Assembly: GCA_963724765.1 (NCBI GenBank)
Contig: CAVRVY010000004.1
Span: 1,248,001-1,312,000 of the forward strand
Reading direction: 5' to 3'
Length of the DNA stretch: 64,000 bases
Source of the DNA: an uncultured delta proteobacterium
GTDB taxonomy: Bacteria > Desulfobacterota > Binatia > Binatales > Binataceae
Both the position numbers and the translations under genes were made by a program. The notes under the pieces are model-generated. The model did not search any database. It had not been told where the DNA came from and saw only the letters and a program-made list of their open reading frames with translations. Positions within the stretch are counted from its first letter, which is position 1. Each line of letters begins with the position of its first letter. Of this stretch, positions 2,503 through 43,645 are shown one piece after another.

Positions 2503-5500
2503 TTGGCCCTACCTAACGAACGGCTCCGCGAGATCGTTCACGAGCTTTCCGGTCGGCCTAAACATGAAAAGGTTCGGTCGCTAATCTACAGCCTTTTGGT
2601 TGATGGGCTCGGCGCCCAGAGCACGGAAATTCAATTCGAGCGCAAGTTGCCCGAAGTACACGGCCGCACGGACGCGCTGCTTGGAAGGACCGTACTCGAG
2701 TTTAAGAGCGACCTTCAAAATGAAGCCGGCGACGCTGAAGAGGAACTCTCCCGCTATCTCAGCCAGCGTGAATCCGAGACGGGACATCGCTTCGTTGGCG
2801 TTGCGATCGATGGCGCTGATTTTTTCGCCTACGAGCTGAGGCGCGGAAAGCTCACCCGCCTTCGCACGCATTTCAGCTTGCGCGGCGAGTTGCGCAAAAA
2901 GGGCAGTAACGCGATCGAGATCGGGCATGCGTTGCTCGCTTGGCTAAGCGGGTTTCTAACTTTACGCCCTGAGCTTACGCCTGACCCCGAAGTGATTCGC
3001 CAGGAGCTCGGCCGCGAAAGCGTTGCCTACGAGATCGCCAGTTCAAGGCTTGAGGTGCTCTGGTCGGCGGTCAAGGACCTGTCGGATGTTCGTCTAAAGC
3101 GTCAGTTGTGGTCAGAGCGCCTCGCCCTCGTCTACGGTACCAGCATCGACGATGACGCTCTCTTCTTTCAGCACAGCTACTTGACGATCGTCGCGAAAAC
3201 GATGGCCACGCTGATTCTCGGAGCTGAGCTTCCCACACCCGCCGATTTGCTCTCCGGCAAGGTATTTCAGGATGCCGGCATCGATGGAGTAGTCGAATCC
3301 GACTTCTTCGATTGGGTGCTCGCGGCGTCGGGCGGTGACGACCTCATCCATCGTATAAGCACGCAGGTAGCGCGCTTTCGTCTTGGCGACATTAAGCACG
3401 ATGTTCTCAAGGTTCTCTATGAATCACTGATCGATCCCGAACAGCGGAAGTATTTGGGCGAATACTACACCCCTGACTGGCTCGCGCAGAAAGTATGCGA
3501 TCGCTTATTGGACCGACCCCTTGAGCAGCGCGCCCTCGATCCTTCCTGCGGTTCCGGCACGTTCCTGTTCCATGCGGTGCGCCGGTTTCTCAAGGCAGCC
3601 GATGCTGCCAATATCGGCAATCGCGAGGCGCTCCAGCGTTGCACCGAGCGTGTCTTCGGGATCGACGTACATCCGGTAGCCGTAATCAATGCGCGCATCA
3701 CCTACCTGCTCGCCATGGGCGAGACGCGTCTGCGCGACCACCCAAATCTTAGTATCCCCGTTTACCTCGGCGACTCACTCCAGTGGAATACCGAGGAAGT
3801 CCTGACGGGGCAGACAGTGCGGGTCCGCGTGCCTCCTCAAGGGACCGAAGAAGAAAAGGACCCCGCGAAAGTCCCGAACCTGACATTTCCGATTCGGCTT
3901 GCCACTAACCCCGCTCTCTTTGACGCAGTGCTTAACCAAATGCTGCGGCTGAGCGAAGAGAAAGCTCCGGCGAGCGTCTTAGAGAATTGGACGGAGCAAT
4001 TTCCGAAGGAGGAAATCCCGCCGGAGATGCGCAGCACGCTGATCTCCACGTACAAGAATCTGCGCCGGCTGCGTACCGAGAAACGCAATCATATCTGGGG
4101 CTATGTGGCGCGCAACCTAAGCCGCCCAGTGTGGCTAGCGACGGCCGGGCAGAAGGTGGATGTAATCATCGGTAACCCGCCTTGGCTTGCCTATCGTGAT
4201 ATGTCGTCGGAGATGCAAAAGCGTCTTCGCGCGGAGTGCACCGAGCGCGACCTGTGGGCCGGCGGTAAGGTTGCGACGCACCAAGACATCTCAGCGTACT
4301 TCTTTGCCCGGTGTGTTGAACTCTATCTAAAAAAGAATGGCGTAATCGCCATGGTTCTGCCCTACGCAACGATGACGCGCCAGCAATATCGTGGCTTCCG
4401 CAACGGTATTTTCGCGAGCAAGCCGACGCGCAAGAAAGGGGTACGAATTTACGCCTCAGTGCGCTTTAATGAGGCGTGGACCTTTGACGAGTCCGTGCAG
4501 CCGCTCTTTAACGTGCCCTCGTGCGTGCTCATAGCAACCGGGAAGCGAACCAGGAGCGTTGCCGGCAAGAGTTACCGCCTATTCCGGTCAGCTTCCGCAG
4601 CGCGATTCATCAAATGCAGAGGCTGAGGCACATCTGAGTTCGCAAGAAGTATCCTGGCCGAAAGGCAATGAGTCGAAGGCCAGCGGCTATAGCGGCAAGT
4701 TTAGGCAAGGCGCAACCGTTGTTCCGCGATTCCTATTCCTGGTAAAACGCGCGTCCGCTGGTCGCCTAGGTTTTAATCGCGATACGCCACTGGTCGAGAG
4801 CCGCCGAAGCAATCTCGAGAAGCGACCGTGGAGGGATTTGGAGCCGCTTCGCGGGCCAGTCGAAAAACAGTTTCTGCGGCCACTCTATCTGGGCGAGTCG
4901 ATCGCACCATTCCGTCTACTAGAGCCGCTCGAGTCCGTGATTCCCTGGGATAGAACAAAAGCCCGACTGCTGGATTCCCAATCCGCACAACGCGCCGGTT
5001 ATCGCCACCTTGCCAACTGGTTAAAGCAATCTGAGTTGCTCTGGGCAAACGAAGGCAAAGGACGGATGTCCTTGCTTGCGAGGATCGACAAGTTTCATGG
5101 GCTTTCGGCACAGATGCAGTGTAATTCCACGCGCGTTCTTTACTCGGCTTCGGGTACCATTCCGGCTGCCGCCCTATTGAAAGACTCGGACGCTGTGATC
5201 GAGCACAAGCTCTACTGGTCAGAGATTTCAGGCGAGACTGAAACGAACTATCTCATAGCCACGCTCAACAGTGATGCGATTCGCGGTTACGTTGCTTCCC
5301 GCCAATCGCGAGGGCAATGGGGGCCGCGAGATTTCGACAAGCTTCTAGCCGAGGCAATTGCTGAGTTCAACCCGTCCAATCCGCTGCACCTGGAACTCGC
5401 ACACGAGGGTGCGCGCGCCGAGAAAGTCGCGGCGCGAGTTGAACTCTCGGACGGTATCCATTTCATTCGGGCGCGCGGTATTATCCGCAAGGCGTTGAGA

Positions 5501-15666: not shown

Positions 15667-16509
15667 CTAAACCTTGCCGATCAGTTCGCGCGCGCACTCG
15701 CCTACAAAACGTATCACGCCCGCGGCGTCGTTTTGGCGATGCAACAGGATCAGGCGATGCACGCCGGCCTCGGCAAAGCGGCGCGCTTCGTCGCGATCGA
15801 TCCGGCGGCTTGGCGTCACGCTTATCTCTATCTCCTCGAAGCGTCGTCCGGTTTCCTTGCACGCGGCCTTGAGTCCTTCGACGTGCCGTTTAGTGGTCTC
15901 AAGATCGAGCGCGAAGCCGTACCATCCGCTGGCCAGGCGCGCGGCGCGCGAAAATGCCTCTTTGGTGTGGCCGCCGAACACGATCTCCGGATGGGGTTTC
16001 TGCACCGGACGCGGCATCGCGTTGACGCCACCGAAGGAGACGAAGCGGCCGCGGAATTCCGGCTTGTCCATCGTCCATAGCGCGATCATCGCCCGCAGGA
16101 ATTCCTCGCTGCGCGCGCCCTTATGGTCGAAGGGAGCGCCGATCGCCTCGAACTCGGGTTTGAGATAGCCGACGCCGATGCCGAAGATCAGGCGCCCACC
16201 GGCGAGCACGTCGGTCGAGGCGAGTTCCTTGGCCAGCACGACCGGATTGCGCTGCGGCAGAATGATGATCCCGGTACCGAGCCGGATGGTCCTGGTGTGC
16301 GCGGCGACGAAGGCCAGCGCGACGAGCGAGTCGATGAATGGAGTCTCAGGCGGCGCTGGCGAGGGCGGCGCCTGCGGATCGGGCAGCACGATATGCTCGC
16401 CGGTCCAGAGACTCTCGAACCCGGCCGCTTCGGCGGCGCGCGCGACTTCGCTCGCCGCCTGCGGATCGGCGCACGGGCCATAGTTGATTCCGAACAGCGC
16501 TATCTTCAT
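15667..16509 (-). CDS. LLM-class F420-dependent oxidoreductase
   Basis: AEAAGFESLWTGEH, IRLGTGIIILPQRNPVVLAKE, PRPVQKPHP. Confidence 0.88.
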   Translation of the reverse strand: MKIALFGINYGPCADPQAASEVARAAEAAGFESLWTGEHIVLPDPQAPPSPAPPETPFIDSLVALAFVAAHTRTIRLGTGIIILPQRNPVVLAKELASTDVLAGGRLIFGIGVGYLKPEFEAIGAPFDHKGARSEEFLRAMIALWTMDKPEFRGRFVSFGGVNAMPRPVQKPHPEIVFGGHTKEAFSRAARLASGWYGFALDLETTKRHVEGLKAACKETGRRFEEIEISVTPSRRIDRDEARRFAEAGVHRLILLHRQNDAAGVIRFVGECARELIGKV

Positions 16510-16613
16510 GGTAGGCAGAACTAGCACGAAGCGATGCACACGGAAATCCGGCGGCGGCCGACGATCGAACGGCGCGAGCGGTGCGGGATCGCCGGTGCAA
16601 CAGGAAACACAAG

Positions 16614-19553: not shown

Positions 19554-22186
19554 ATGAACACGCTTATAGAGAGGTTGCGATCAGAAGTCGCGGACTGGCG
19601 TTCGGCAAACTTCCCGCATGGCGAATATCCCGCTATTTCTGAGGTATTCGAATGGGCGGCGGAGCCGGAAGGAGCTGGTTTTCACCTGAGGATTCCACAG
19701 CTTCGCGCCCTCGAAGTCTACTGGCTTCTCCGCCTGATCAAGGGCACTCCGAAGATTGCCGATCTATACAAGAGTTATTTCCCAATCCGTGAAGATCCCG
19801 ATGGATTCCTGAAGGCGCTCAACATCTCCGACGCGGCATTCAGGGCATCGAAGTACGACTTCGACGTACTCTGGGAAAACATCGCCATCAACGATGATTT
19901 CGTCCGTGAGCATAGCCTACAGGCCCTCCGCGAGACGCTCGGCCTAGGATATCCAAGTTACATCCTGGCGCTGGCGATGGGTGCAGGCAAAACAGCGCTC
20001 ATAGGTGCCATCATCGCAACCGAGTTCGCGATGGCCCTCGAATACCCTGATAGTCCGTTCGTGCAAAACGCCCTCGTTTTCGCGCCCGGAACCACAATTC
20101 TTGGTGCGCTCCGCGACCTTGCCGCCGTTCCGTATGAGCGTATTCTCCCGCCGCGGCTATTCAAGCAGTTCGCCGCGACGGTGAAACTCATCTTCACACG
20201 CGACGGCGAGCGCGACATCCCCATCATTAAGGGCAGTTGCTTCAACGTCGTGGTCACAAACACTGAGAAAATCCGCATCCAAAAGGACACAATCCGCAAG
20301 AGTGATATCGGCAGGCTGTTGAATCCGAGGAAGGAAGATGAAGCTCGCGCGGAAGTCGCCAACCTCCGCCTGCAATCAATAGCCAGTCTCCCGCATCTCG
20401 GCGTCTTTTCCGACGAAGCGCACCACACGTACGGACAAGCGCTCGACACAGAGCTCAAAAAGGTGCGCAAAACCGTGGACTACCTCCACTCGCATAGTCC
20501 GAATCTCGTTTGCGTCGTCAACACCACCGGCACGCCGTACTTCAAGCGACAGCCGCTCCGCGATGTGGTCGTCTGGTATGGGCTCTCGCAAGGCATTGCT
20601 GACAACATCCTGAAGACGGTCGGCAATAATATTTACGCCTACAACTTCGATGGCGACGCGAGACAACTGTTGGGGCAAATCGTCGAAGATTTTTTTGAGA
20701 GGTACCACAACGTTACTCTCCAGGACGGTTCTCAGGCGAAGCTCGCCATTTATTTTCCACAAACCAACGACCTCCGTGAGCTTCGCCCGGCAGCCCGGCA
20801 GTCGAGGCGAAGCTTATCGAACTAGGTCTGTCCACCGAGCTCGTCATGGAGCGCCACAGCACTTCTGGAATCGCCGAAAGAAACGCTTTCGAACGTATCA
20901 ACGATCCCGTCTCACCCCATCGCATCATTCTGCTCGTAAACATGGGAACTGAGGGCTGGAACGTGCCAAGCCTCTTTGCCTGCGCGCTCGCCCGAAAGTT
21001 GAAGACGTCCAACAACTTCGTCTTACAGGCCGCCTCGCGCTGTCTAAGGCAGGTTGCGGGGAACGTCGTGCCCGCATCAATCTACCTATCTACAGATAAC
21101 CAGCGCACGCTGGACAAAGAACTCCACGAGACCTACGGCGAGTCGCTCGAAGACCTACGCCGTAAGCAAAGCAACAGTCGGGCCGCCACAATCACTGTAC
21201 GCAAGCTCAAGATTCCTCCGCTCGTAGTCCGCCAGCTCGTCCGCACCGTTGTCCGAAAGGAAACGACCAGCGCGACCGCTTTCGCATTTACGAAGCCGGA
21301 AACGGAAGCTGGGCCGAAGCTTGAACGCCTCACTTTCGCTATCGCTCAGCAATCCGCCACTCGTGCCCTGCTCAAGCAGACCGGAGACACACTCACGATA
21401 GAGGCCGAGCCGGATACCGTCGACCTGTACACAGCCGCTACTGAAATGTCCGCCATCTACCGGCTGGAACCATGGATTGTGCTGGAGGAGCTCCGCCGTG
21501 TTTGTGGCAGAGCGGATGAACTGCCACTTGTGCAACTTGCGGGTTTGAGCGCGCAAATAGAAGCGCAGTTCTCCGAATACGAGGTTAAAGAGGAGCTTGT
21601 CGAGCGTGCCCTCGCGCTCATAAAGCCGAACGGCTTCACCCTGTCGCTCGACGCGACCGGCGCGGAGACCTACACAGCTGAAATCCGCTATCCGGTAGAC
21701 CGCGAAAAGCTAATCGCCCACTTCACCGAATGGCGATGTCGCAATGAAGGACGATCCGCTGCGTTCGGCTTCCACTACAGTCCCTACAACTTTGACTCGA
21801 ATCCTGAACTAAGCTTTTTCGAGACGCTGTTCGACCATCTCAGCCTTCAGCCGCACCATGTGGAGGATATCTACTTTACTGGAGCCATCACGGACCCGCG
21901 CAAATCGGATTTCTTTGTCGAGTATCTCGGTGAAGATGACCGCTGGCACCGGTATACACCCGATTTCGTCATCCGCCGCAAAGATGGTCGCTGTCTCATC
22001 GTCGAAATCAAGGGGGACAATATGCGCTCACATCCAGTTAACGGCGTGAATGGCAGGAAGGCGGTCGCCGTTCGTCAATGGGAGAAGTTGAACCCGGACA
22101 AACTCCGTTACCAGATGATTTTCGTGAAGGATGACGTACTCACCCGCGAAGACAGTGCTGACGCCCGCAAATTCGCAGGGGACTGA
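19554..22186 (+). pseudogene. Type III-like restriction (Res) DEAD-box helicase/endonuclease, frameshifted by 8-bp duplication at 20785-20800
   Basis: LAMGAGKT, SDEAHH, EGWNVP, LQAASRCLR, C-terminal YTPDF..LIVEIKG; removing one GCCCGGCA restores ELRPAVEAKLIELGLSTELVMERH. Confidence 0.88.
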
Positions 22187-23887
22187 AGAATGTCCACCTA
22201 CGATAAAACCAGGGCTAAGGATTCCTCGGCAACTCGGCCGAAAGTCGCGAAGTCCGCAATTACGCCCGGCAAAGTGGATAAGAGCAAGAGAGTCGTCCGT
22301 AAAGCTGCAGAAGCGGAGCCCACTACTGTCGAAACCAAGCAGGTGAACATCGCGAGAGCTAAAGGCCGCCCAATGCTCTCCTGGGTGGGCAAACGCCCCC
22401 TCCGAGCCGTTACCACTTTTCCGGCCCAGCTCGTCGAGACCTTTACCCCGCAGGGGGCGGACAAGTCGAACACGGCAGACGTGACAATCTGGAAAGATTG
22501 GCCGGAAGCGTACCCGCGTGGAGGTTTACTCTTCCACGGCGACAATAAAGAGGTGCTTGCGCATCTACTCGCCAGTGGGCTTCGCGGCAAGGTGAGTCTA
22601 ATCTATATTGATCCACCTTTCGACAGCGGCGCTGATTACGTGCGCAAAGTGCAACTCAGAGGCCCAAGAGGAAACGCAAAGCTTGAAGGGGAGACGTACT
22701 CACTCGGCGAGCAACTCCAATACAGCGACATTTGGGCCAATGACAACTATCTTCAGTTTATGTATGAGCGACTGCTGATGATGAAGGAGCTGCTGGCCGC
22801 TAACGGCAGCATCTACCTACACTGCGACAATCGAAAGGGTCATCACCTCCGATGCCTTCTCGATGAGGTTTTCGGGTCGGAAGCAATCGTCAACGAGATC
22901 ATCTGGAGAAGCACGACCTTTACAGGAAGCAGCAAAGCCATCGCGAACCGCTATCCGACCGACCACAACACCATTTATTGGTACCACAAGGGCGACGCAT
23001 ACGTCTTCAATAAGGTTCGAGAAGCCTACAAGGAGGAATACCTAGCGAGATTTACGAACCCAGACCAGGATCTGCGAGGTCCTTGGCAAAGCGTATCGCT
23101 GAAGACGTTCTCGACAGAGACCTTTGAACGTCTCAAGGCAGAGAAACGTCTGATTTCGCCTCAGCGCTATGGAGCCGGATGGAGATTCAAATTCTACCTG
23201 AGTGAGGCCAAAGGCAAAGCTGTAGAAACTTTGTGGCTGAACTTGGAAAGTACGCCCACCGCCGTCGAAGCACGAGGCTATGTACCCGATGCTGGAGCTT
23301 TGATCCCTTCGATTTGGTTGGACATTAACATGGCGAACTCCATGGCGGACGAACGGACGGGTTATCCGACCGAGAAGCCCGAGGAACTGCTGTCCCGCGT
23401 TATCGAAGCGTCCTCAAACCCGGGCGACTTAGTGCTCGACTGCTTTCTTGGCTCGGGCACGACGGCTGCCGTAGCACAAAGGCTGGGCCGTCGTTGGATT
23501 GGTTGCGACATCAACAAAGGTGCAATACAGACCACGACTGAGCGCTTGCAACTGACTATCGCTGAACAGCTCGCTTCCACTCGGTCCGCAACTCAGCAAC
23601 AAAACTTGCTTCCGGACGATACGCCTAACCCCGCGCGGCCCGCGCAATTCGGCTTCGCGGTGTACCGTGTCAACGACTATGACCTTGCCATTCAGCTCAG
23701 CGAAGCCGTAAACCTAGCGTGTGAGCACATCGGTGTCACACGCACGCTTAGTGATGCATTCTTCGATGGCACGCTCGGGGGCAAGCTCGTAAAAATTGTT
23801 CCTTTTGGCCATCCACTTTCAGCTGCCGATTTGGAGGACATGAAGCGGGAACTCGACGCCCGCGCCAACGAATCACGTGATGTACTA

Positions 23888-25037
23888 GTATTGTGTCCCA
23901 CAAATAACTTTACAGGAGTGAGGCCCATCTGCTATGGTCCGGTGGAGGTTGAATGGGATGGGCAGGCCGAATGCAGCCTTGATGATTACTCAGTCGGAGC
24001 GGTCGCAACTGCGCTCGATCGTGCGTTCGCGCAGCCTGCCGCATTCGTTGGTGCGGCGCGCACAGATCGTGCTGCTGTCGGCCGCTGGCGCCGCCAACAG
24101 AGAGGTCGCCAGGCGCTGCGGGGTTAGTGCTCCGGTGGTCAGTCTGTGGCGCCAGCGTTATCAGCAACGCGGCATCGCCGGGCTGCACGCGGAACTTCGT
24201 CCGGGCCGACCGCGCAGCCATAGCGACGAACAGGTAGCGGGCTTGCTGCGCAAGGTACTGCACAGCAAGCCCGCCGTCGCCACCCACTGGAGCGTGCGCA
24301 GCGTGGCGGCGCATACTGGCATCTCCAAGAGCACGGTCGCGCGCTACTTCGCGCTGTTCGGCCTGCAACCACATCGGAGCAAGAGCTTTAAGCTGTCCAC
24401 CGACCCGTTCTTCGTCGAAAAGGTCCGCGACATCGTTGGGCTTTATCTTAATCCGCCGGACAACGCGCTGGTATTGTGCGTGGATGAGAAGAGCCAGGTG
24501 CAGGCCTTGGAGCGCACCCAACCAGTGCTGCCAATGGGGCTCGGTTATGTCGAGGGAGTGACTCACGATTACTATCGTCACGGCACTACCACGCTCTTCG
24601 CGGCACTGGACATCGTCGACGGCGGGGTCATCTCCCAGTGCAAGCCGCGCCATCGCCACCAGGAATTCCTGAGCTTTTTGAAACATCTCGATGCTAATAT
24701 GCCGGCCGATCTTGAACTGCACCTGATCGCCGACAACTACGCGACTCACAAGCATCCCAAAGTCAGAGCGTGGCTCGCCAGCCATCCGCGCTTTCACCTT
24801 CACTTCACGCCCACCTACTCAAGCTGGCTCAACCAGATCGAGCGCTGGTTCGCGCTTATCACCCAGCAAGCGATTCGCCGCGGCTCGTTCCGCAACGTCC
24901 GGGAACTGGTGGGGAAGATCGACGCCTACGTGGCTCATTACAATGCCCACAAGCGGCCCTTCGTCTGGACTGCCACCGCCGACTCGATATTCAACAAACT
25001 CCAGCGCATCTGTAAACTTATTAATGGGACACAACAC
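23888..25037 (+). mobile_element. IS630-family insertion sequence (~1.15 kb) in CTAG target, TA duplicated
   Basis: Ends GTATTGTGTCCCACAAATAA / reverse complement GTGTTGTGTCCCATTAATAA; TA at 23886-87 and 25038-39. Confidence 0.93.
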
Positions 25038-25040
25038 TAG
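23958..25040 (+). CDS. IS630 transposase
   Basis: HTH N-terminus; CVDEKSQVQALER, DNYATHK, SWLNQIERWF (DDE); stop uses the duplicated TA. Confidence 0.95.
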   Translation: MGRPNAALMITQSERSQLRSIVRSRSLPHSLVRRAQIVLLSAAGAANREVARRCGVSAPVVSLWRQRYQQRGIAGLHAELRPGRPRSHSDEQVAGLLRKVLHSKPAVATHWSVRSVAAHTGISKSTVARYFALFGLQPHRSKSFKLSTDPFFVEKVRDIVGLYLNPPDNALVLCVDEKSQVQALERTQPVLPMGLGYVEGVTHDYYRHGTTTLFAALDIVDGGVISQCKPRHRHQEFLSFLKHLDANMPADLELHLIADNYATHKHPKVRAWLASHPRFHLHFTPTYSSWLNQIERWFALITQQAIRRGSFRNVRELVGKIDAYVAHYNAHKRPFVWTATADSIFNKLQRICKLINGTQH

Positions 25041-32897: not shown

Positions 32898-33545
32898 CTA
32901 GCCGTGAGTGATCCCGAGCCGGGCAAGCTGATTGTAGGTATGAGTCATGCTGGGCGCGCGGACAAACTCGTTCAGATCGTCGATCACGTCAAGGTCGAGC
33001 GCCGGGCCGCGCCGCCGCACTACCCGGCTTGGCAGACCGAGCCGATAACATTCCTCGAGATGGCGCGCGAGACTCCGGCCGCCAAAGCGCGTCGGAATCG
33101 CGCCGGCCGGCGCGCGGGCAATTATATTGGTGCCGCTTAAGTCGCGCGAGGGCACCAGCACCACGCCGCGCTCTTCTTCGGCCAGTTCGCTGAAGACCGC
33201 GTCGATGTCCTCGCCGGTCACCAGCGGAATGTCCGACAGCACCGTGCACAACGTGCCGACGCCCTGCGCGGCGAGCGCCGCCGTCGCCAGGCCTACCGCC
33301 GCGTTGAGCCCGCGCGGAAACTCCTCGTCGATCACCAACGCGCCCGCGGTGCGTGCGAGGTTGAGCAACGCCGGGTCCGAACTGATAACCGCCACGTGGT
33401 CCGCCGCGCGCGCGCTTAGCGCCGCGGCCAGCACGTCGCGAAACATCGCCTCGGCCAGCGCCATACGATCGGTGTCGCCCACGGCGCGGCCCAGACGCGT
33501 CTTGGCGAAAGCGAGATGCTTGGCGGCGATGAGGATTGCACGCAC
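32898..33545 (-). CDS. cofC: 2-phospho-L-lactate/PEP guanylyltransferase (F420 biosynthesis)
   Basis: AKTRL, MFRDVL, GLNAAV, SDIP, GTN, FG..S..RH, LDLDVIDDL. Confidence 0.88.
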   Translation of the reverse strand: MRAILIAAKHLAFAKTRLGRAVGDTDRMALAEAMFRDVLAAALSARAADHVAVISSDPALLNLARTAGALVIDEEFPRGLNAAVGLATAALAAQGVGTLCTVLSDIPLVTGEDIDAVFSELAEEERGVVLVPSRDLSGTNIIARAPAGAIPTRFGGRSLARHLEECYRLGLPSRVVRRRGPALDLDVIDDLNEFVRAPSMTHTYNQLARLGITHG

Positions 33546-37699: not shown

Positions 37700-38164
37700 C
37701 TACCGATAGATCATATGGATCGAAAGCGCGAGAACGCCCTTGCCCGCGTATTGAACCTTGCACTGATCGAATGACGGCGCCCTGAGCGTCGGATTTACGT
37801 TATTGGTGAATCCATAGCCCTCGAGCGGGTAGCCGAACCTGCGGTCGAATTTGCCGTTGCCGTTTTCGTCGTGAAACACGGTCGCGGCGTAGGCCCCAGC
37901 CGCCAGCCCCTTGAATTCGCACACGCCTTTATCGCCTTCGATAGGCACCGAAACTTCGTGCGACTCCGTGCCAGTTTTTGTAAATTCAGCGGAGTTCGCG
38001 CCCGACCATAGCGAGCAAATCACGGAGCCTTTCTGATTGCGCACGCCGTCCACGACGATGCGGATTTCGTTCGGCTGCGCCACCGGTTGCGAATGTGCGA
38101 TACACGGCGCGAGCACAAATCCAATTGCCATCGCGCACGCCAATGTGAAGAGTTTGGGCTTCAT
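37700..38164 (-). CDS. DUF2141-like exported protein
   Basis: Signal peptide; GAYAATVFHDENGNGKFD...PLEGYGFTNN....PSF. Confidence 0.8.
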   Translation of the reverse strand: MKPKLFTLACAMAIGFVLAPCIAHSQPVAQPNEIRIVVDGVRNQKGSVICSLWSGANSAEFTKTGTESHEVSVPIEGDKGVCEFKGLAAGAYAATVFHDENGNGKFDRRFGYPLEGYGFTNNVNPTLRAPSFDQCKVQYAGKGVLALSIHMIYR

Positions 38165-38243
38165 TCCTAATTTTTCCTCATGCCGCACGATCGATTTCTC
38201 CCAGGGATGCTCGCGAGATGTTTGTGGTCAAGCGCTCGCCCGA

Positions 38244-38960
38244 TCAGTGCTTGCCGTAGTCGAGCGGTACGCCCTTGCGCTGCGCGTAGATGTAGGCTTC
38301 GAGCGCGCGCAGCTTCGGATCGTTGGGGTCGAGCGCCTTGCCCTTGATCGGATTCTCGATGCACCAATCGATCATGTCGCGCAGCAGCGCGACCCGCTGA
38401 AGCTGGACCTGGTACTTGGGATAAGTCTCGGGATGCGTATTGGCGGCGTCGGGATGGCACATGTCGCAGCTTATTCCGATCGTGCTGCCGAGCGCCTTGG
38501 AGTCGTGAAAGATGCGCTTGCCGTCGGCGACGAACTTGTCGGTCTCGGCTTTCCAGACCTTGTAGTCGCGCGGCTGAAAGCTCGCGTACGTGTCGCCCTG
38601 CTGGACGGCCAGCGAAGGCGCCGCCGCGGGGGCTTGCGTACCTGACATTGTCGCTGTCGAGGCCTTTGGGCTCGCCGGTGAGGCTTGGGCAACTTCCCAG
38701 CGCTCGCCGGGATGCGCGCGTCGCCATTGGTCCATCAGTTCGTCGCTTACCGCCTGCGCCTGCGCGCGCGACATCGTCTGTCCGGGCTCTAAGTTCTTGA
38801 CCTCGATACTGGTCTTGCCGTCGCAGAGCATCACGACCGTGCCGCCGCTGTGGGCCGCGGGAACGTCGTGGGTAGCTGCCTGCTGCGCATACGAGCGCGC
38901 CAGGCCAGCGGCCGCGATCGTGGTTCCAAACATCAGGAGGACTATTCGTTTGGAGATCAT
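38244..38960 (-). CDS. Periplasmic monoheme c-type cytochrome, TsdA/SoxA-like domain
   Basis: Signal peptide; single CDMCH; YPKY...LRDMIDWCIENP.KG...ALEAYI parallels the TsdA heme-1 domain. Confidence 0.75.
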   Translation of the reverse strand: MISKRIVLLMFGTTIAAAGLARSYAQQAATHDVPAAHSGGTVVMLCDGKTSIEVKNLEPGQTMSRAQAQAVSDELMDQWRRAHPGERWEVAQASPASPKASTATMSGTQAPAAAPSLAVQQGDTYASFQPRDYKVWKAETDKFVADGKRIFHDSKALGSTIGISCDMCHPDAANTHPETYPKYQVQLQRVALLRDMIDWCIENPIKGKALDPNDPKLRALEAYIYAQRKGVPLDYGKH

Positions 38961-39002
38961 TGTCGCCTCGTCGAATGAGAACCGTCGAGTATCGGTTGGC
39001 GA

Positions 39003-40151
39003 TCAATAGCTCGCGAACTGCGGCGCGGGCGGGCGATAGACCTTGCCATGCGATCGCAGGTATTGCGCGCGCACCGTGACCGGATTGCGGTCCCACAGGT
39101 TGTACATCATATCCGCCAGCCCTTCCTTGCTGACATTGACCTGGCCGTCACCGAGCCCGTCGAGCTGGTCGTACGGATCGGCGCGATTCATCTGCACTGT
39201 GAGCGGCGGCAATCCCTGCGGCGCGTAAGGCCATGGCCAGGCAGTCGAGAGCATTCCGTAGAAGCTGATGTTGGCGATCTGGTTGAAGAGCATCTGATGC
39301 GTGTGGCCATGGATTACGGTGACGTGGGGGTAGGGCCTGAGCAGCGCCTGCACCTGATCGGCGTCTTCGGTCCAGAAATTCCAGTTGCGGTAGTACTTAT
39401 AGAGCGGCGAGTGTGAGAACACGAGCAGCGGCGTGGTGGCCGGCACTTTGGCGAGGTCGCCTTTGAGCCATTCGCGCTCCTGGTCGCCGACTTCGAAGCG
39501 CGACTGAATCGGATTGTCCAACCCCGCGACGATTTGCATCCGCTCGGCCGGGGTCAGCTTGCGCGCGGTCCAGAAATCCTTCTCATGCACGCTCATCAGG
39601 ACGATTACGTGCACGCCTTTCCAGTCGAACGAATAGTTGGGCGGGCCGAACAGCTCCTGCCATTTCTCGCCCAAATCGTAAAACCAGTCATGCTCCCCGA
39701 CCATCATTTTGACCGGCGCCTTGAGCATCGAGAGAATTTCCTTGCCCTGCTGCAGTTCCTCGGGCCGCCCCAACTGCGCCAGGTCGCCGCCGAACAGCAC
39801 AAAATCGGGCTGTGGATCGAGCGCGTTGACGTCCTCGACCGCTTTGACCGCGCCTTTGACGAAACGCTGATTGAGCGTCCGCACGTACATGTGCGTGTCG
39901 GAGATATAGGCAAAAGTAAACGGCGGCGTTCCCGACAGGCCGGTCGCGCTCGCGCTCTTGTCCACGGCCGCCTCGGCTACGTTGACGAGCTGAAAGGTAT
40001 GCGGCGGCATTAGACCCTTGGCCATCACGGCGCCGGCGCTCGCAGCCAGGACTTTCAGGAAAGTGCGGCGATCGAGCCGGCGCATCCCGCGCAGCACCGC
40101 CTCGCGATCTTCCATGTATTTGGTTTCGACGCTCTTGTGCCGTACCGCCAT
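39003..40151 (-). CDS. Tat-exported metallophosphoesterase-fold protein
   Basis: DRRTFLK Tat motif; SDTH, GGDL, GEHD, SHSP, HGHTH. Confidence 0.85.
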   Translation of the reverse strand: MAVRHKSVETKYMEDREAVLRGMRRLDRRTFLKVLAASAGAVMAKGLMPPHTFQLVNVAEAAVDKSASATGLSGTPPFTFAYISDTHMYVRTLNQRFVKGAVKAVEDVNALDPQPDFVLFGGDLAQLGRPEELQQGKEILSMLKAPVKMMVGEHDWFYDLGEKWQELFGPPNYSFDWKGVHVIVLMSVHEKDFWTARKLTPAERMQIVAGLDNPIQSRFEVGDQEREWLKGDLAKVPATTPLLVFSHSPLYKYYRNWNFWTEDADQVQALLRPYPHVTVIHGHTHQMLFNQIANISFYGMLSTAWPWPYAPQGLPPLTVQMNRADPYDQLDGLGDGQVNVSKEGLADMMYNLWDRNPVTVRAQYLRSHGKVYRPPAPQFASY

Positions 40152-40179
40152 GACTTTGCTTCCTCGTGGATAAGGATCG

Positions 40180-41478
40180 TCAGTCGCCGCCGAGTAGCGC
40201 GGGATTCTCTTCGCTCTGTGCCGGCGTCATATCACCGAACGGTCCCTTGAAGCCGGGACCGAGGCCGGACTTGCCCATCGCGGCCGCCTCGTCGCGCTGA
40301 GGACGCTCGGTCTTGGCACGTGCGCGCTGCTTTTCGAGCTCCTCGTTCGCCGCGCTCGCGTATTCGGGACTGGTCAGAGTCGCGAGGAAAGCGACGAGGT
40401 CATCTTCTTCGGATTCGCTGAGTCCGAGCGGCAGCAGGCCGCCATCGAGGTAAGGGTTCGGTACGCCGCCTTTATTGTAGTGATCCAGAACGTCCCACAG
40501 CGTCGGCTGCGAACCGTCGTGGAAGTAGGGCTGCGTCACCAGCAAGTTGCGCAAGCCCATCGTTCGGAAGCCGCCGATATCATGGGCCTGTTTGGTTACG
40601 AGGAAACGCCCGAGCCCGCTCATGTCGGTTTGGATTGCGAGTCGGTCGAGCTGCTGCAAACCGCCGCCGCCCTGCGCGATCAATAACAGCGCTTTGCGCG
40701 CCAGCGGAACGAAGTCCGACTTATGCGCAGATACGCCAATATTATGAAAACGATTGTCAGTGAACAGCGGCTGCGTCGGATTCCATCCGTGGCAAGTCAT
40801 GCAGCGGCCCTTGCCGTTGAACAATGACCATCCGCGTTTGGCGCTGGCATTGATGGCGTTCTGATCGCCCGCCATAAAATGGTCGAAGGGCGTATCGAAG
40901 GCAACCTGCGTGCGTTCGTAAGCCGCGATCGCCTTCTCGATATTGTCCATCGTGATTGCGCCGTTGAATACGGCCTGAAACGACTGCTGATAGTCGGAAA
41001 TCGCCTTCACCTTGCCGACTACATCGTCGAAGCTCTTGTTGCCCATTTCGACCGGGTTGAGGATCGGGCCTTCGATTTGTTTCTCCAGCGTTGGCGCGCG
41101 GCCGTCCCAAAACTGGAGCGTGTTGAACAGCGCGTTCAAAACGGTCGGAGCGTTGCGCTGTCCGAAAGCGTGATGAATACCCATCGAGGTCGGGAGCTGA
41201 TCGGTGAAACCCTTGGCGGGCGAATGGCACTGGTCGCACGATACGGTGCCATCGGCAGAGAGCCGATCGTCGAAGAAGAGCTTACGGCCGAGCTCTACCT
41301 TTGCCGGCGTCTGTGGATTATCCGCCGGTATTACCCACGAATAGAGCTCGGCGGGGAAGCCGGTCTGATTGTTCGGCTTGGGTGCGGCGAGCGGAACCGA
41401 CTCGTCGGCGCCCACAGTTGTCATCAAGGCAATCGCTACGGCGCAGAGAATCACCGGTGTGAACAGCCTGGCTCTCAT
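40180..41478 (-). CDS. Diheme bCcP/MauG superfamily protein
   Basis: LGRKLFFD.RLS, CDQCH, RNAPTVLN, QFWDGRA, CMTCH, LRN...TQPYFHDGS, DHYNKGG; AGGAGG RBS. Confidence 0.93.
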   Translation of the reverse strand: MRARLFTPVILCAVAIALMTTVGADESVPLAAPKPNNQTGFPAELYSWVIPADNPQTPAKVELGRKLFFDDRLSADGTVSCDQCHSPAKGFTDQLPTSMGIHHAFGQRNAPTVLNALFNTLQFWDGRAPTLEKQIEGPILNPVEMGNKSFDDVVGKVKAISDYQQSFQAVFNGAITMDNIEKAIAAYERTQVAFDTPFDHFMAGDQNAINASAKRGWSLFNGKGRCMTCHGWNPTQPLFTDNRFHNIGVSAHKSDFVPLARKALLLIAQGGGGLQQLDRLAIQTDMSGLGRFLVTKQAHDIGGFRTMGLRNLLVTQPYFHDGSQPTLWDVLDHYNKGGVPNPYLDGGLLPLGLSESEEDDLVAFLATLTSPEYASAANEELEKQRARAKTERPQRDEAAAMGKSGLGPGFKGPFGDMTPAQSEENPALLGGD

Positions 41479-41642
41479 TGCCTCCTCCTGACAGCCGGTC
41501 GAAACCTCGAAGTCTACAAGACATCCTGACACGAAGCCTCAGGCCGTTGGCAACACGCTCATCGGCACCTGACCCAACCAGGTTAGAAAAGCTTCTCGCG
41601 AATCGAGACGGAATTTCCGTCTCTGAGTTCCACCCTCGTCGG

Positions 41643-41701: not shown

Positions 41702-43645
41702 CTACGATCTCGCCATTGGGAACTGTGACGTTTCGGCGCGGCCGGCAGCGGTGGCGGGCGGCCGTAGCGCGGCGGGATCGAGATTCGGTCCGCGCAGATG
41801 AATCAGCCGGCCGTCGGCGCCGTCGCGCTCCGAGAGCCATCGTGCGACGATCGCCATCGCGTCCAGTTCATCGCGTATCACCGGCCGCGCGCGATAGCCC
41901 TCGTAATTCGCGGCCACGAATTCCGCAACCGCCTGCGCATCACCGGCTTCCGCGACCGCACGGCTCAGCGCGAGCCGCCCGCTCAGCACCACATGCGCGA
42001 GCGTCGAGGCGCCAGCGCCTGCCACGATCACGAGATTGTTCTCGGTGACGACGCGGCTTAGCCGCTCGGCGCGCGCGGCGAGGGTGGTGAGCGAGGTCAG
42101 CTCGCGCTTAAACCGCGCGGCCTCCTCGAAACGCATCGCGCGGGCCGCCTCGTCGCGCGCGCGAGCCAGTTCGCCGAGCAGAGGGCCGCTGCGTCCGCGC
42201 AGGAATTCGACCGCGCGCCGCACTCGCGCGCCGTAAGCGTCTTCGTCGGCGCTCAGGTTGCACGGCATCGCGCAGTGCCCCATCTGGCCGTACATGCACG
42301 GCGAAAAATCCGCGTATGGCGCGAGCTTGCCGACGCAGGTGCGCAATCCCAGGATACGCTCGAGTGCGCGCATCGCGCGGTCTACCCCGCCCCGGCCCGC
42401 GAACGGCCCAAGCTGCATCATGCCGCGGCGCGCCGAAAGCCTGGTCGAGAGCGTCAGCCGCGGAAAGGCGTCCATCAGGTCGAGCCGCAAGAAGTACGCC
42501 TGCGCCATCCCCTTGAGCATCCGGTTGTACGGCGGTTTGAGTTCGCGGATGAGCCGCGCCTCGAGCAGCGCGGCGTCTAGCGCCGACAGCGTCACCCGCG
42601 CATCGATCATATAAACGTGGCTTACAAGATCGGCGGTCTTGGCGTCGATCGTCATGCCGCCGTTGAAATACGAGGCAACCCGCTCGCGCAGACGCCGCGC
42701 CTTGCCGACGTAGAGCAGATCGCCACGCTCGTTGCGCATCAGGTAAACTCCGGGCGCCATCGGCAGAGCCGCGATCGCTTCGGGTGCGACGTGACGCTCG
42801 ATCCTGCGGCCGGCGGCGCCGCGGCTGTGCAGATCGATCAGCCGGTCGACGCGGGTAATACCGCTTTGCGCGGCGATGTCGAGAAAGATCGACAGCAGCT
42901 CGGCCGCCATTCGCGCGTCACCGAGCCCGCGATGGCGGCCCTGGGTCGAAAGCCCGAAATGTTCGGCCAGCGCGTCGAGCCGGCGCCGGCGCAGCGAGGG
43001 CGCGAAGCGGCGCGAGAGCCTGAGCGTGCACAACACCGGGTTCTTGAGCCCCATCCCGAACACCCGGCGGAACTCGAAGTCGAGGAACGCGAAATCGAAC
43101 TGCGCGTTGTGCGCGACCATCACCGCGTCGCCCAGAAAATCGCGAAACGCCGGCAGCACGCGCTCGATTGGCGGCGCGCCGGCCACCATCTCATTGGTGA
43201 TCGACGTAAGCCGCGTGACGAAGGGCGAGATCGGACCGCGCGGGCGCACCAGAGTCGCGAACGATTCCGTCATCCGCGGACCTTCCATCCGGTACGCGCC
43301 GATTTCGGTAATCGCGCCGGGGCCGGGGCGCCCGCCGGTGGTTTCGAGATCGACCACCACGTAGCGGCCCCGTTCCAGCGGCACCTTCAGCGCCTCGCTC
43401 GCGCGCAAGGCCCACATCCCGCTCGCGCCGTCGAACACGAAATTCGGATCGCCGGCGAGCAGGCGGTGAACGATACGCGGGCCGAGTTCGGGGTCGGAAC
43501 CTGCGCCCTGAAAGAGCAGGCCAACCAATTCGTCGGTGTGCGCGCCGGCTATCTGGCGCTCGAGATAAGCGTAAAGCTTCTCGCGCGCGGTTGCGCCTGA
43601 ATAACGATGCTCGAGGTCGAAAGCTGCCACAGCCCCATCCACCAC
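41702..43645 (-). CDS. DEDDh exonuclease (DnaQ-like) fused to GIY-YIG/UvrC N-terminal (Cho-like) nuclease
   Basis: VVVDLETTG, AHNAQFD, HRGLGDA; PGVYLM..LYVGKA..LRERVASYF, LEARLI..KPPYN, Cys cluster, UVR helix FEEAA. Confidence 0.85.
   Translation of the reverse strand: MVDGAVAAFDLEHRYSGATAREKLYAYLERQIAGAHTDELVGLLFQGAGSDPELGPRIVHRLLAGDPNFVFDGASGMWALRASEALKVPLERGRYVVVDLETTGGRPGPGAITEIGAYRMEGPRMTESFATLVRPRGPISPFVTRLTSITNEMVAGAPPIERVLPAFRDFLGDAVMVAHNAQFDFAFLDFEFRRVFGMGLKNPVLCTLRLSRRFAPSLRRRRLDALAEHFGLSTQGRHRGLGDARMAAELLSIFLDIAAQSGITRVDRLIDLHSRGAAGRRIERHVAPEAIAALPMAPGVYLMRNERGDLLYVGKARRLRERVASYFNGGMTIDAKTADLVSHVYMIDARVTLSALDAALLEARLIRELKPPYNRMLKGMAQAYFLRLDLMDAFPRLTLSTRLSARRGMMQLGPFAGRGGVDRAMRALERILGLRTCVGKLAPYADFSPCMYGQMGHCAMPCNLSADEDAYGARVRRAVEFLRGRSGPLLGELARARDEAARAMRFEEAARFKRELTSLTTLAARAERLSRVVTENNLVIVAGAGASTLAHVVLSGRLALSRAVAEAGDAQAVAEFVAANYEGYRARPVIRDELDAMAIVARWLSERDGADGRLIHLRGPNLDPAALRPPATAAGRAETSQFPMARS

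Follow-up and report, generated by a model that had tools for sequence, protein, structure and literature searches.

Which function is served by a diheme enzyme, a metallophosphoesterase-fold protein (MPE) and a monoheme c cytochrome that are encoded side by side and all exported is the question raised by a locus of an uncultured delta proteobacterium (Binatia, Binataceae; GenBank assembly GCA_963724765.1). The locus lies within a stretch of 64,000 nucleotides (contig CAVRVY010000004.1, positions 1,248,001 to 1,312,000), referred to here as the window, and had been pointed out by a first-pass annotation made from the sequence alone. The trio was found to be a conserved and mobile module, and it is tentatively read here as encoding a periplasmic redox module of three proteins that would work as a catalytic electron-transfer complex. 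The three genes are the following:

40180..41478, minus strand: MauG-type diheme enzyme, 432 amino acids (aa) counted from M19 (Pfam CCP_MauG, 8.3e-59)
39003..40151, minus strand: Tat-exported MPE, 382 aa (Pfam Metallophos, 2e-15)
38244..38960, minus strand: monoheme SoxA/TsdA-type c cytochrome, 238 aa (Pfam SoxA-TsdA_cyt-c, 1.9e-09)

All parts come from known superfamilies, none belongs to a characterised family by curated cut-offs, and the combination is uncharacterised. None of the three proteins reaches the curated NCBIfam cut-off of any named family, and the full-text literature search returned no paper on the trio or on redox-linked MPEs, in agreement with the earlier remark that no characterised function is known for it.

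Conservation and spread of the gene trio

The scan with the MPE alignment, for which one genome per species was used, yielded at least 479 confirmed relatives. The synteny counts rest on the best 80 of these, all with 59-94% identity. The diheme gene is located directly upstream of the MPE gene in 80/80 loci (split into two open reading frames (ORFs) in four of them), and the cytochrome gene is located directly downstream in 78 of the 80, the two misses being contigs that break off no more than about 420 nt after the MPE stop codon. This recurrence of the gene order in at least six phyla exceeds chance and goes beyond what the first-pass annotation had expected of the trio. The loci were found in Binatia, Myxococcota (Cystobacter, Myxococcus, Corallococcus, Chondromyces and Minicystis), Alpha- and Gammaproteobacteria, Planctomycetota and Acidobacteriota, the carriers including Beijerinckiaceae (Methylocella, Methylocapsa), Steroidobacteraceae and a USC-gamma bin.

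The genes are tightly packed throughout, with median gaps of 18 nt between the diheme and MPE genes and 15.5 nt between the MPE and cytochrome genes, and 4-bp overlaps were detected five times at the former junction and twice at the latter. The pairwise-identity matrices of the three proteins correlate with r = 0.81-0.86. On a quick tree, which was used solely to show the intermixing of phyla, 16 label changes were counted against a minimum of 5, and on a Methylocystis plasmid the trio sits between transposase genes. Clustering of all ORFs of the 80 loci revealed no further shared neighbours beyond the trio; most of the other clusters consist of antisense ORFs of the trio itself. Because the trio is conserved while phyla are intermixed, a plasmid copy is flanked by transposase genes and no further neighbour is shared, it is an autonomous, horizontally mobile module.

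A class IV aminotransferase gene (16 loci) and other genes (at most 9 loci) look like housekeeping genes and were set aside. A ferritin/Dps-like gene is located just upstream, on the same strand, in 8 Binatus-type loci (e.g., L003, 5979-6509) and was dropped as a linked component, its product being without a signal peptide. In one metagenome-assembled genome the whole cassette is present twice, on two contigs (L017 and L020).

The diheme enzyme

The diheme protein carries a Sec-type signal peptide and matches the Pfam family CCP_MauG with 198.9 bits (cut-off 25.6). All of the motifs noticed at first sight are present in the translation, namely two CxxCH motifs (C81/C84/H85 and C226/C229/H230), the bridging Trp in QFWDGRA, PYFHDGS and VLDHYNKGG. 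In a set of 81 sequences, C226, C229 and H230 are conserved at 100% and C81, C84 and H85 at 96%.

Y334 of the HYNKGG motif (numbering from M19) pairs gap-free with chain position 294 of MauG in the alignment; the chain of the Y294H variant of MauG gave a shorter alignment to the diheme protein. This Tyr is invariant in 46/46 rows of one alignment and conserved at 98% in the 81-sequence set, and Tyr334 is the predicted sixth ligand of the C-terminal heme. No conserved Met above 40% was found in the C-terminal domain among the 81 sequences, and the Met-bearing loop of MacA and CcpA aligns either to a gap or to a different, longer stretch of the diheme protein that is free of Met. H102 and H103, at the positions of the distal His of canonical bacterial cytochrome c peroxidases (bCcPs), are conserved at 26% and 5% only. 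A second Tyr (Y373, SPEYA), which aligns with Tyr463 of BthA, was rejected as a ligand due to its conservation of only 36%.

According to the accessible portion of PMC11892367, His/Met ligation marks the canonical enzymes and His/Tyr ligation the MauG type. As the aligned Tyr fits this criterion, the diheme protein is MauG-type by its sequence, within neither the MauG nor the MbnH family proper: it scores 221.5 bits against the NCBIfam MbnH model TIGR04039 (cut-off 362.85) and 209.1 bits against the MauG model TIGR03791 (cut-off 443.85). The earlier view was thereby upheld in so far as the diheme protein is not a canonical His/Met peroxidase. The two domains point to different relatives. The N-terminal, peroxide-side domain best matches MacA (3.8e-54) and other bCcPs, and the C-terminal heme domain best matches MbnH (6e1c, 3.2e-11). 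For the AlphaFold2 (AF2) model, which has a mean predicted local distance difference test (pLDDT) value of 75, the best fold matches are canonical peroxidases with template modelling (TM) scores of 0.72-0.75, normalised on the target.

The metallophosphoesterase-fold protein

The MPE is the most conserved of the three proteins (mean pairwise identity 68%) and matches Pfam Metallophos with 58.2 bits (cut-off 21.5). Of the superfamily motifs DxH, GD, GNH[DE], H and GHxH, the fold is matched and the Asn ligand of GNH[DE] is altered. The metal ligands D85, H87, D123, H247, H281 and H283 are all kept, and Glu153 stands in place of the Asn of GNHD (GEHD), with Glu in at least 90% of 62 rows; GpdQ and Rv0805 read GNHD at the aligned positions. 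Counting Glu153, the putative two-metal site would comprise four His and three carboxylates. The catalytic residues of hydrolytic MPEs, His154 and Asp155, are retained.

The description of the protein as Trp-rich refers to 10 Trp in 382 aa (2.6%), and 9 of the 10, including W257, W305 and W307, are conserved at 100% in the 81 sequences. It is without any Cys. The twin-arginine motif DRRxFLK (DRRTFLKV here) precedes a hydrophobic stretch, with R28 and R29 invariant in 62 rows, and the MPE is predicted from it to be a substrate of twin-arginine translocation (Tat), as had been proposed. The Tat n-region (KSVETKY...R, within residues 1-30) is unusually conserved across phyla and may be a binding mark for a chaperone encoded outside the module. 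At the other end, the C-terminus (39003-39008) reads ...SY, with Y382 at 89%, and is part of the predicted interface described below.

The solved folds nearest to the AF2 model (pLDDT 85) are GpdQ, Rv0805 and purple acid phosphatases (Foldseek 1e-14 to 1e-10), with TM scores of only about 0.5 when normalised on the query. In source records the MPE is annotated as Icc/CpdA-like; the NCBIfam phosphodiesterase models are all far below their cut-offs, the best with 34.6 versus 225 bits. SoxB is made up of an MPE domain and a 5'-nucleotidase C-terminal domain. In the MPE, no Pfam match beyond Metallophos and no NCBIfam match to SoxB was found, i.e., no SoxB C-terminal domain. An atlas search with the mature MPE returned only generic Metallophos clusters. 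The literature search found no Tat-exported MPE besides YkuE, which is described as such in the retrieved part of PMC5449189 and belongs to a different family (YaeI model, E = 0.0021 for the MPE).

The cytochrome

The cytochrome consists of a Sec signal peptide, a small N-terminal domain, a Pro/Ala-rich linker and a heme domain, which matches Pfam SoxA-TsdA_cyt-c with 37.8 bits (cut-off 27). Its single CxxCH motif, i.e., one heme only, is CDMCH (C165-x-x-C168-H169) and is followed by a WC with Cys200; all four residues are invariant in 44 rows. Cys200 aligns, with a weak E-value of 0.097, with chain position 96 of TsdA, the Cys heme ligand. It is accordingly the predicted axial ligand of a His/Cys heme, as had been supposed when the cytochrome was called Cys-ligated. 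Against the SoxA equivalog model the cytochrome reaches 36.3 bits (cut-off 110). Arg109 and Arg119 of TsdA bind substrate according to a legend in PMC9562282; these residues, at chain positions 82 and 92, are matched by Gln186 and Met196 in the alignment and are thus not kept.

In the N-terminal domain (residues 38-90), which could be a carrier or docking piece, there is a single near-invariant Cys46 (LCDG), and W79 and W88 are invariant. The conserved C-terminus (38247-38258) reads ...YGKH and lies in the predicted interface.

Evidence for a physical complex

Two natural fusion proteins, P0438 (744 aa) and P0439 (745 aa), were found on two contigs. In both, a diheme domain with HYNNGG is fused to an MPE domain with MGEHD, the gene order is kept and a Sec-type signal takes the place of the Tat signal. 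A third candidate, P0440 (739 aa), was discounted as a frame-garbled read-through, and for P0441 (MPE plus a propeller of the pyrroloquinoline quinone type) the match covers only 31% of the query.

For co-folding, diheme residues 38-396, MPE residues 78-382 and three hemes were used as input, with cytochrome residues 38-238 as the scored partner. The interface score (ipSAE) for the cytochrome was 0.69 (runs 0.69, 0.51 and 0.70), and the best of three controls reached 0.03; the pLDDT of the partner was at least 68. Among solved complexes, 116 of 157 reach the mark applied to this score, compared with 2 of 215 mismatched pairs; these counts are only approximate here because own alignments were used and hemes were included. 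In the best run, the CxxCH region and C200 of the cytochrome are placed in contact with Y89, N256/W257, W305-P308 and the C-terminus of the MPE, and these parts are also placed against diheme residues 227-233, beside the second CxxCH motif. Binding of the cytochrome is supported by this co-fold, which passes its controls, and a physical complex, as anticipated earlier, is supported by the two fusions as well.

Relatives of the MPE outside the trio

The Asn-to-Glu change was found in 19 of 21 diverse MPE relatives, and the remaining two have Ala at this position. Relatives at 28-33% identity carry C-terminal fusions to electron-transfer domains, namely Rieske (P0326), plastocyanin-like (P0353, a 13-member cluster) and CuA-like (P0357). 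In the cupredoxin- and Rieske-fused relatives the metal site is kept and W305 and W307 are absent.

Furthermore, 8 of 195 plasmid records with an MPE homologue were examined. The full trio is present in one (Methylocystis). In three plasmids, of Sinorhizobium meliloti, Phyllobacterium and Rhizobium gallicum, the MPE is paired with a SoxA/TsdA-type cytochrome, the pairs having 41-45% identity, and there is no diheme gene within 8 kb. The pair of Phyllobacterium and R. gallicum is followed by genes for a cbb3-type oxidase and a P-type ATPase, with SCO1/SenC upstream; since the cbb3-type genes follow the pair and no diheme gene is found within 8 kb, a terminal oxidase here stands in for the diheme enzyme. 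Convergent genes for a flavoprotein of flavocytochrome c sulfide dehydrogenase (FCSD), a cytochrome c, SoxZ and SoxY come after the pair of S. meliloti. The MPE of this species, the only rhizobial one that was read, retains SWPWPY. A Ralstonia plasmid encodes the MPE followed by a separate COX2-like cupredoxin, and a Gemmatirosa plasmid an MPE-cupredoxin fusion beside the genes of an extracytoplasmic function (ECF) sigma factor and its zf-HC2 anti-sigma factor. The pairing of this MPE clade with one-electron carriers is thus seen by computation.

The rhizobial MPE genes are preceded by a gene for a 238-aa exported protein with a type-1-copper-like C-x2-H-x2-M motif and a CarboxypepD_reg domain, of which the S. 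meliloti copy is truncated by an IS66 insertion:

L083, 7113-7829: 238-aa exported protein upstream of the MPE
L084, 7102-7818: 238-aa exported protein upstream of the MPE
L082, 7428-7808: corresponding gene upstream of the MPE

A proposed catalytic electron-transfer complex and its rivals

We read the MPE with the altered metal site and a one-electron carrier as the constant element of these loci and the oxidant end as the variable one. A catalytic electron-transfer complex is tentatively favoured because the carrier is constant and the oxidant end varies, with a diheme enzyme in the window and a cbb3-type oxidase in rhizobia. The redox unit proper would consist of the MPE and the cytochrome as its obligate partner, and the end that reacts with H2O2 (or O2) would be the diheme enzyme. 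Peroxide would oxidise the diheme enzyme to a high-valent state, oxidising equivalents would reach the two-metal site by way of the His/Cys heme and W257, W305 and W307, the invariant Trp cluster, and a small substrate would be oxidised there; equivalently, electrons would flow from the MPE to peroxide. The direction of the electron flow, the redox activity of the two-metal site and the substrate are inferred, and the substrate candidates, sulfite or thiosulfate, phosphite and arsenite, all formers of tetrahedral oxyanions, are guesses.

Several observations weigh against this reading. The 80 loci comprise only the closest relatives (at least 59% identity), which limits the sampling, and fusions of diheme and MPE domains are rare (2 clusters). 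The co-fold score covers the cytochrome as partner, so that the contact between diheme enzyme and MPE lies outside it, and the agreement between the contacts of the three runs is at least 0%, shared contacts not being required. In the control in which the MPE was kept and the diheme protein was swapped for an unrelated protein, the score of the cytochrome fell to 0.03, and for this reason the MPE-cytochrome interface alone is not confidently placed. Among the eight plasmids, two (Burkholderia cenocepacia and Streptomyces) show no recognisable electron-transfer partner. As His154 and Asp155 are kept, the MPE may instead act as a hydrolase. In addition, MauG-type enzymes of known function (MauG and MbnH) modify partner proteins and not small substrates according to the available text of PMC11951088 and PMC11892367, and in the known cases covered by the retrieved part of PMC9562282, His/Cys hemes of the SoxA/TsdA fold serve as catalytic sulfur sites.

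Among the rivals, the maturase proposal of the first-pass annotation ranks highest, although it is considered unlikely: the diheme enzyme would build a cofactor from Trp in the MPE. In the form weighed here, a single H2O2-driven oxidation by the MauG-type enzyme would act on Trp or Tyr of the MPE (or of the cytochrome) and leave a cofactor or metal ligand derived from the protein itself. MauG provides the model with methylamine dehydrogenase and MbnH with MbnP; the cytochrome would be the redox partner of the mature enzyme. The His/Tyr signature, the strict adjacency of the diheme and MPE genes and the nine invariant Trp of the MPE, with W257, W305 and W307 at the predicted protein interface, are in its favour, as is the precedent, reported in the accessible part of PMC11951088, that His/Tyr diheme enzymes of known function have an adjacent partner protein as their target. 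Both the relatives without a diheme gene and the natural fusions weaken the proposal: the S. meliloti MPE keeps its Trp motif in a pair that has no diheme gene within 8 kb, and a permanent fusion of the enzyme to its own substrate, as in P0438 and P0439, would be uneconomical. The cupredoxin- and Rieske-fused relatives lack W305 and W307, yet retain the metal site, and the co-fold would put the cytochrome, not the diheme enzyme, against the Trp cluster. The oxidase genes after the pair in two of the three rhizobia and the cupredoxin, CuA-like and Rieske fusions fit electron transfer better than a one-off maturation.

Less probable again, and equal to each other in rank, are a compact Sox-like sulfur oxidation and a periplasmic oxidant defence. 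In the former, the His/Cys heme would join sulfite or thiosulfate to Cys200 (or to Cys46 of the N-terminal domain), the MPE would act like SoxB and hydrolyse the S-sulfonate to sulfate, and the diheme enzyme would take the two electrons. SoxB belongs to the same superfamily as the MPE and is likewise exported by the Tat pathway, the cytochrome has the SoxA/TsdA fold with a Cys aligned to the TsdA ligand, the best co-fold run turns C200 and residues 185-189 towards the MPE, and the S. meliloti pair adjoins genes of sulfur oxidation. For TsdA, the formation of a cysteinyl sulfonate with sulfite is described in the available part of PMC9562282. However, the two substrate-binding Arg of TsdA are replaced, the MPE is without the C-terminal domain of SoxB and has its nearest folds in GpdQ and Rv0805, and a pure hydrolase would need no fused cupredoxin or Rieske domains; the Sox neighbourhood was found in one species only, and sox genes are absent from the window. 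In an oxidant defence, the two-metal site would reduce O2- or N-derived oxidants, comparable to the di-iron sites of flavodiiron proteins and rubrerythrin, the diheme enzyme would remove H2O2, and respiratory electrons would enter via the cytochrome. With its four His and three carboxylates, the ligand set is similar to flavodiiron sites, electron-transfer domains are fused to relatives, and the N-terminal domain of the diheme enzyme is nearest to true peroxidases. Genes for ECF sigma and zf-HC2 anti-sigma factors adjoin the Gemmatirosa fusion and also occur in 5 loci of the myxobacterial type, and the ferritin-like gene just upstream in the Binatus-type loci would also suit a defence, but its product has no signal peptide. 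A low-potential His/Cys heme would be an odd entry for respiratory electrons, the module has no donor gene, and scavenging bCcPs do not use a His/Tyr heme according to the retrieved text of PMC11892367. By far the least probable explanation is that the parts are ordinary: a peroxide scavenger and the cytochrome that serves as its donor would lie beside a periplasmic phosphodiesterase whose metal site would at most be redox-regulated, with no joint chemistry. Purple acid phosphatases are redox-switched, the nearest solved folds of the MPE are phosphodiesterases, and its source annotation agrees with this. Against this stand the 80/80 synteny across phyla with overlapping stop and start codons, the natural fusions, the Asn-to-Glu change at the substrate-binding metal and the phosphodiesterase models far below their cut-offs.

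More doubtful than the electron-transfer complex itself, and more probable than any of these rivals, is a wider claim, namely that the GEHD clade is a new class of periplasmic two-metal oxidoreductases, not hydrolases, with varied one-electron partners (His/Cys cytochrome, cupredoxin, CuA, Rieske), the site of the trio being driven by a MauG-type bis-Fe(IV) enzyme. If true, this would be the first use of MauG-like high-valent chemistry for catalysis on a small substrate, and the reaction might be an oxidation of sulfite, phosphite or arsenite to the tetrahedral oxyanion without molybdenum. To our knowledge, only three MauG-type (His/Tyr) diheme enzymes have been characterised so far, two of which build protein cofactors; the trio would represent a fourth lineage with a wholly different set of partners. 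The clade of MPEs with an altered ligand near electron carriers suggests that a hydrolase fold has been re-used for redox chemistry, as is the case for the metallo-beta-lactamase fold in flavodiiron proteins. At least several hundred species of soil bacteria carry the trio, among them methanotroph relatives, myxobacteria and Binatia, and the cultured carriers Cystobacter fuscus, Methylocapsa polymorpha and Minicystis rosea make direct testing possible.

Comparison with characterised systems

MauG of Paracoccus denitrificans (3l4m), which acts in tryptophan tryptophylquinone (TTQ) biosynthesis, shares with the diheme enzyme the fold, the Tyr aligned with Tyr294, the bridging Trp and an adjoining partner gene. 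It differs in that the diheme enzyme of the window stays far below the MauG equivalog cut-off (209 versus 444 bits) and has an N-terminal domain nearer to canonical peroxidases. The partner of MauG is the precursor of methylamine dehydrogenase (preMADH), whereas the partners here are an MPE-fold protein and a His/Cys cytochrome, and no mau operon is present in the window. MbnH is likewise a diheme enzyme paired with a Trp-bearing partner (MbnP), and its segment PYMHDGS...DIYSEGG aligns with PYFHDGS...DHYNKGG; in contrast to that system, the diheme enzyme of the window is below the family cut-off, no MbnP-like gene is found and a third protein, the cytochrome, is present. BthA of Burkholderia (6nx0) is a further His/Tyr diheme enzyme, for which no physiological role is assigned in the retrieved part of PMC6405878. 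Its Tyr463 is located in another, C-terminal segment, where the window protein has the poorly conserved Y373, and the similarity is weak (1e-16).

The canonical bCcPs (MacA, 4aal; CcpA; YhjA) are the best overall match by sequence and fold, with conserved peroxide-side motifs, but they have a Met at the ligand loop and a distal His at the peroxidatic heme, neither of which is conserved in the diheme enzyme. The cytochrome shares the Pfam domain, the CxxCH motif and the aligned Cys ligand with TsdA and SoxA (4wq7, 1h31) and differs from them by its one heme, where that group has a second heme or a heme partner (SoxX), by the missing Arg pair of the Arg-rich substrate pocket and by an extra N-terminal domain with a conserved Cys. 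GpdQ, Rv0805 and the purple acid phosphatases have the same fold as the MPE, in which four of their five metal-binding motifs are kept; GpdQ and Rv0805 have GNHD where the MPE has GEHD, and the MPE is Tat-exported and accompanied by electron-transfer proteins.

Operon structure and further features of the window

Between 37700 and 41532, four consecutive co-oriented ORFs are located on the minus strand, all with exported products. The following rows complete the three given above:

40180-41532, minus strand: ORF of the diheme CcP/MauG enzyme as given in the ORF list, with the likelier start at 41478
37700..38188, minus strand: DUF2141 protein with signal peptide, 162 aa (Pfam DUF2141, 3.3e-25)
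41479..41593, minus strand: leader of the operon and probably its promoter region; Shine-Dalgarno sequence AGGAGG at 41484-41489

The start of the diheme gene at 41478 (codon of M19) is likelier than that at 41532 because AGGAGG is located 5 nt upstream of this ATG. A consensus scan found no sigma-70-like promoter on the strand of the operon. The intergenic gaps are 28 nt (diheme-MPE), 42 nt (MPE-cytochrome) and, between cytochrome and DUF2141 genes, 79 nt from an internal ATG or 55 nt from the GTG start, in good agreement with the values of about 28, 42 and 80 bp noted earlier for tightly packed, co-oriented genes. The DUF2141 gene had been counted as a member of the operon. As a neighbour it was detected in only one of the 80 related loci (L001) and is therefore lineage-specific; it may be co-transcribed, outside the conserved module.

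The gene directly upstream of the operon (41702-43645, minus strand) encodes a fusion of an RNase_T-type exonuclease and a GIY-YIG nuclease domain and is closed by a terminator-like hairpin (41608-41594). The nearest relatives of the locus among the matches listed are Candidatus Binataceae. The G + C content of the window is 58-68% and the genes outside the operon are otherwise housekeeping genes; in the annotation of the 64-kb window, no sox and no mau genes were found. A region at 19554-25040 with a G + C content of 0.545-0.589 contains two large ORFs without a Pfam match (19554-22186), a DNA methylase gene (22190-24127) and a DDE_3 transposase gene (23934-25040) and is probably a mobile or defence islet. 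A second Eco57I/N6-methylase-like gene is located at 2503-4626. Furthermore, genes for a CofC-like guanylyltransferase (32898-33545) and a luciferase-like monooxygenase (15667-16539) hint at F420-linked metabolism in the host organism.

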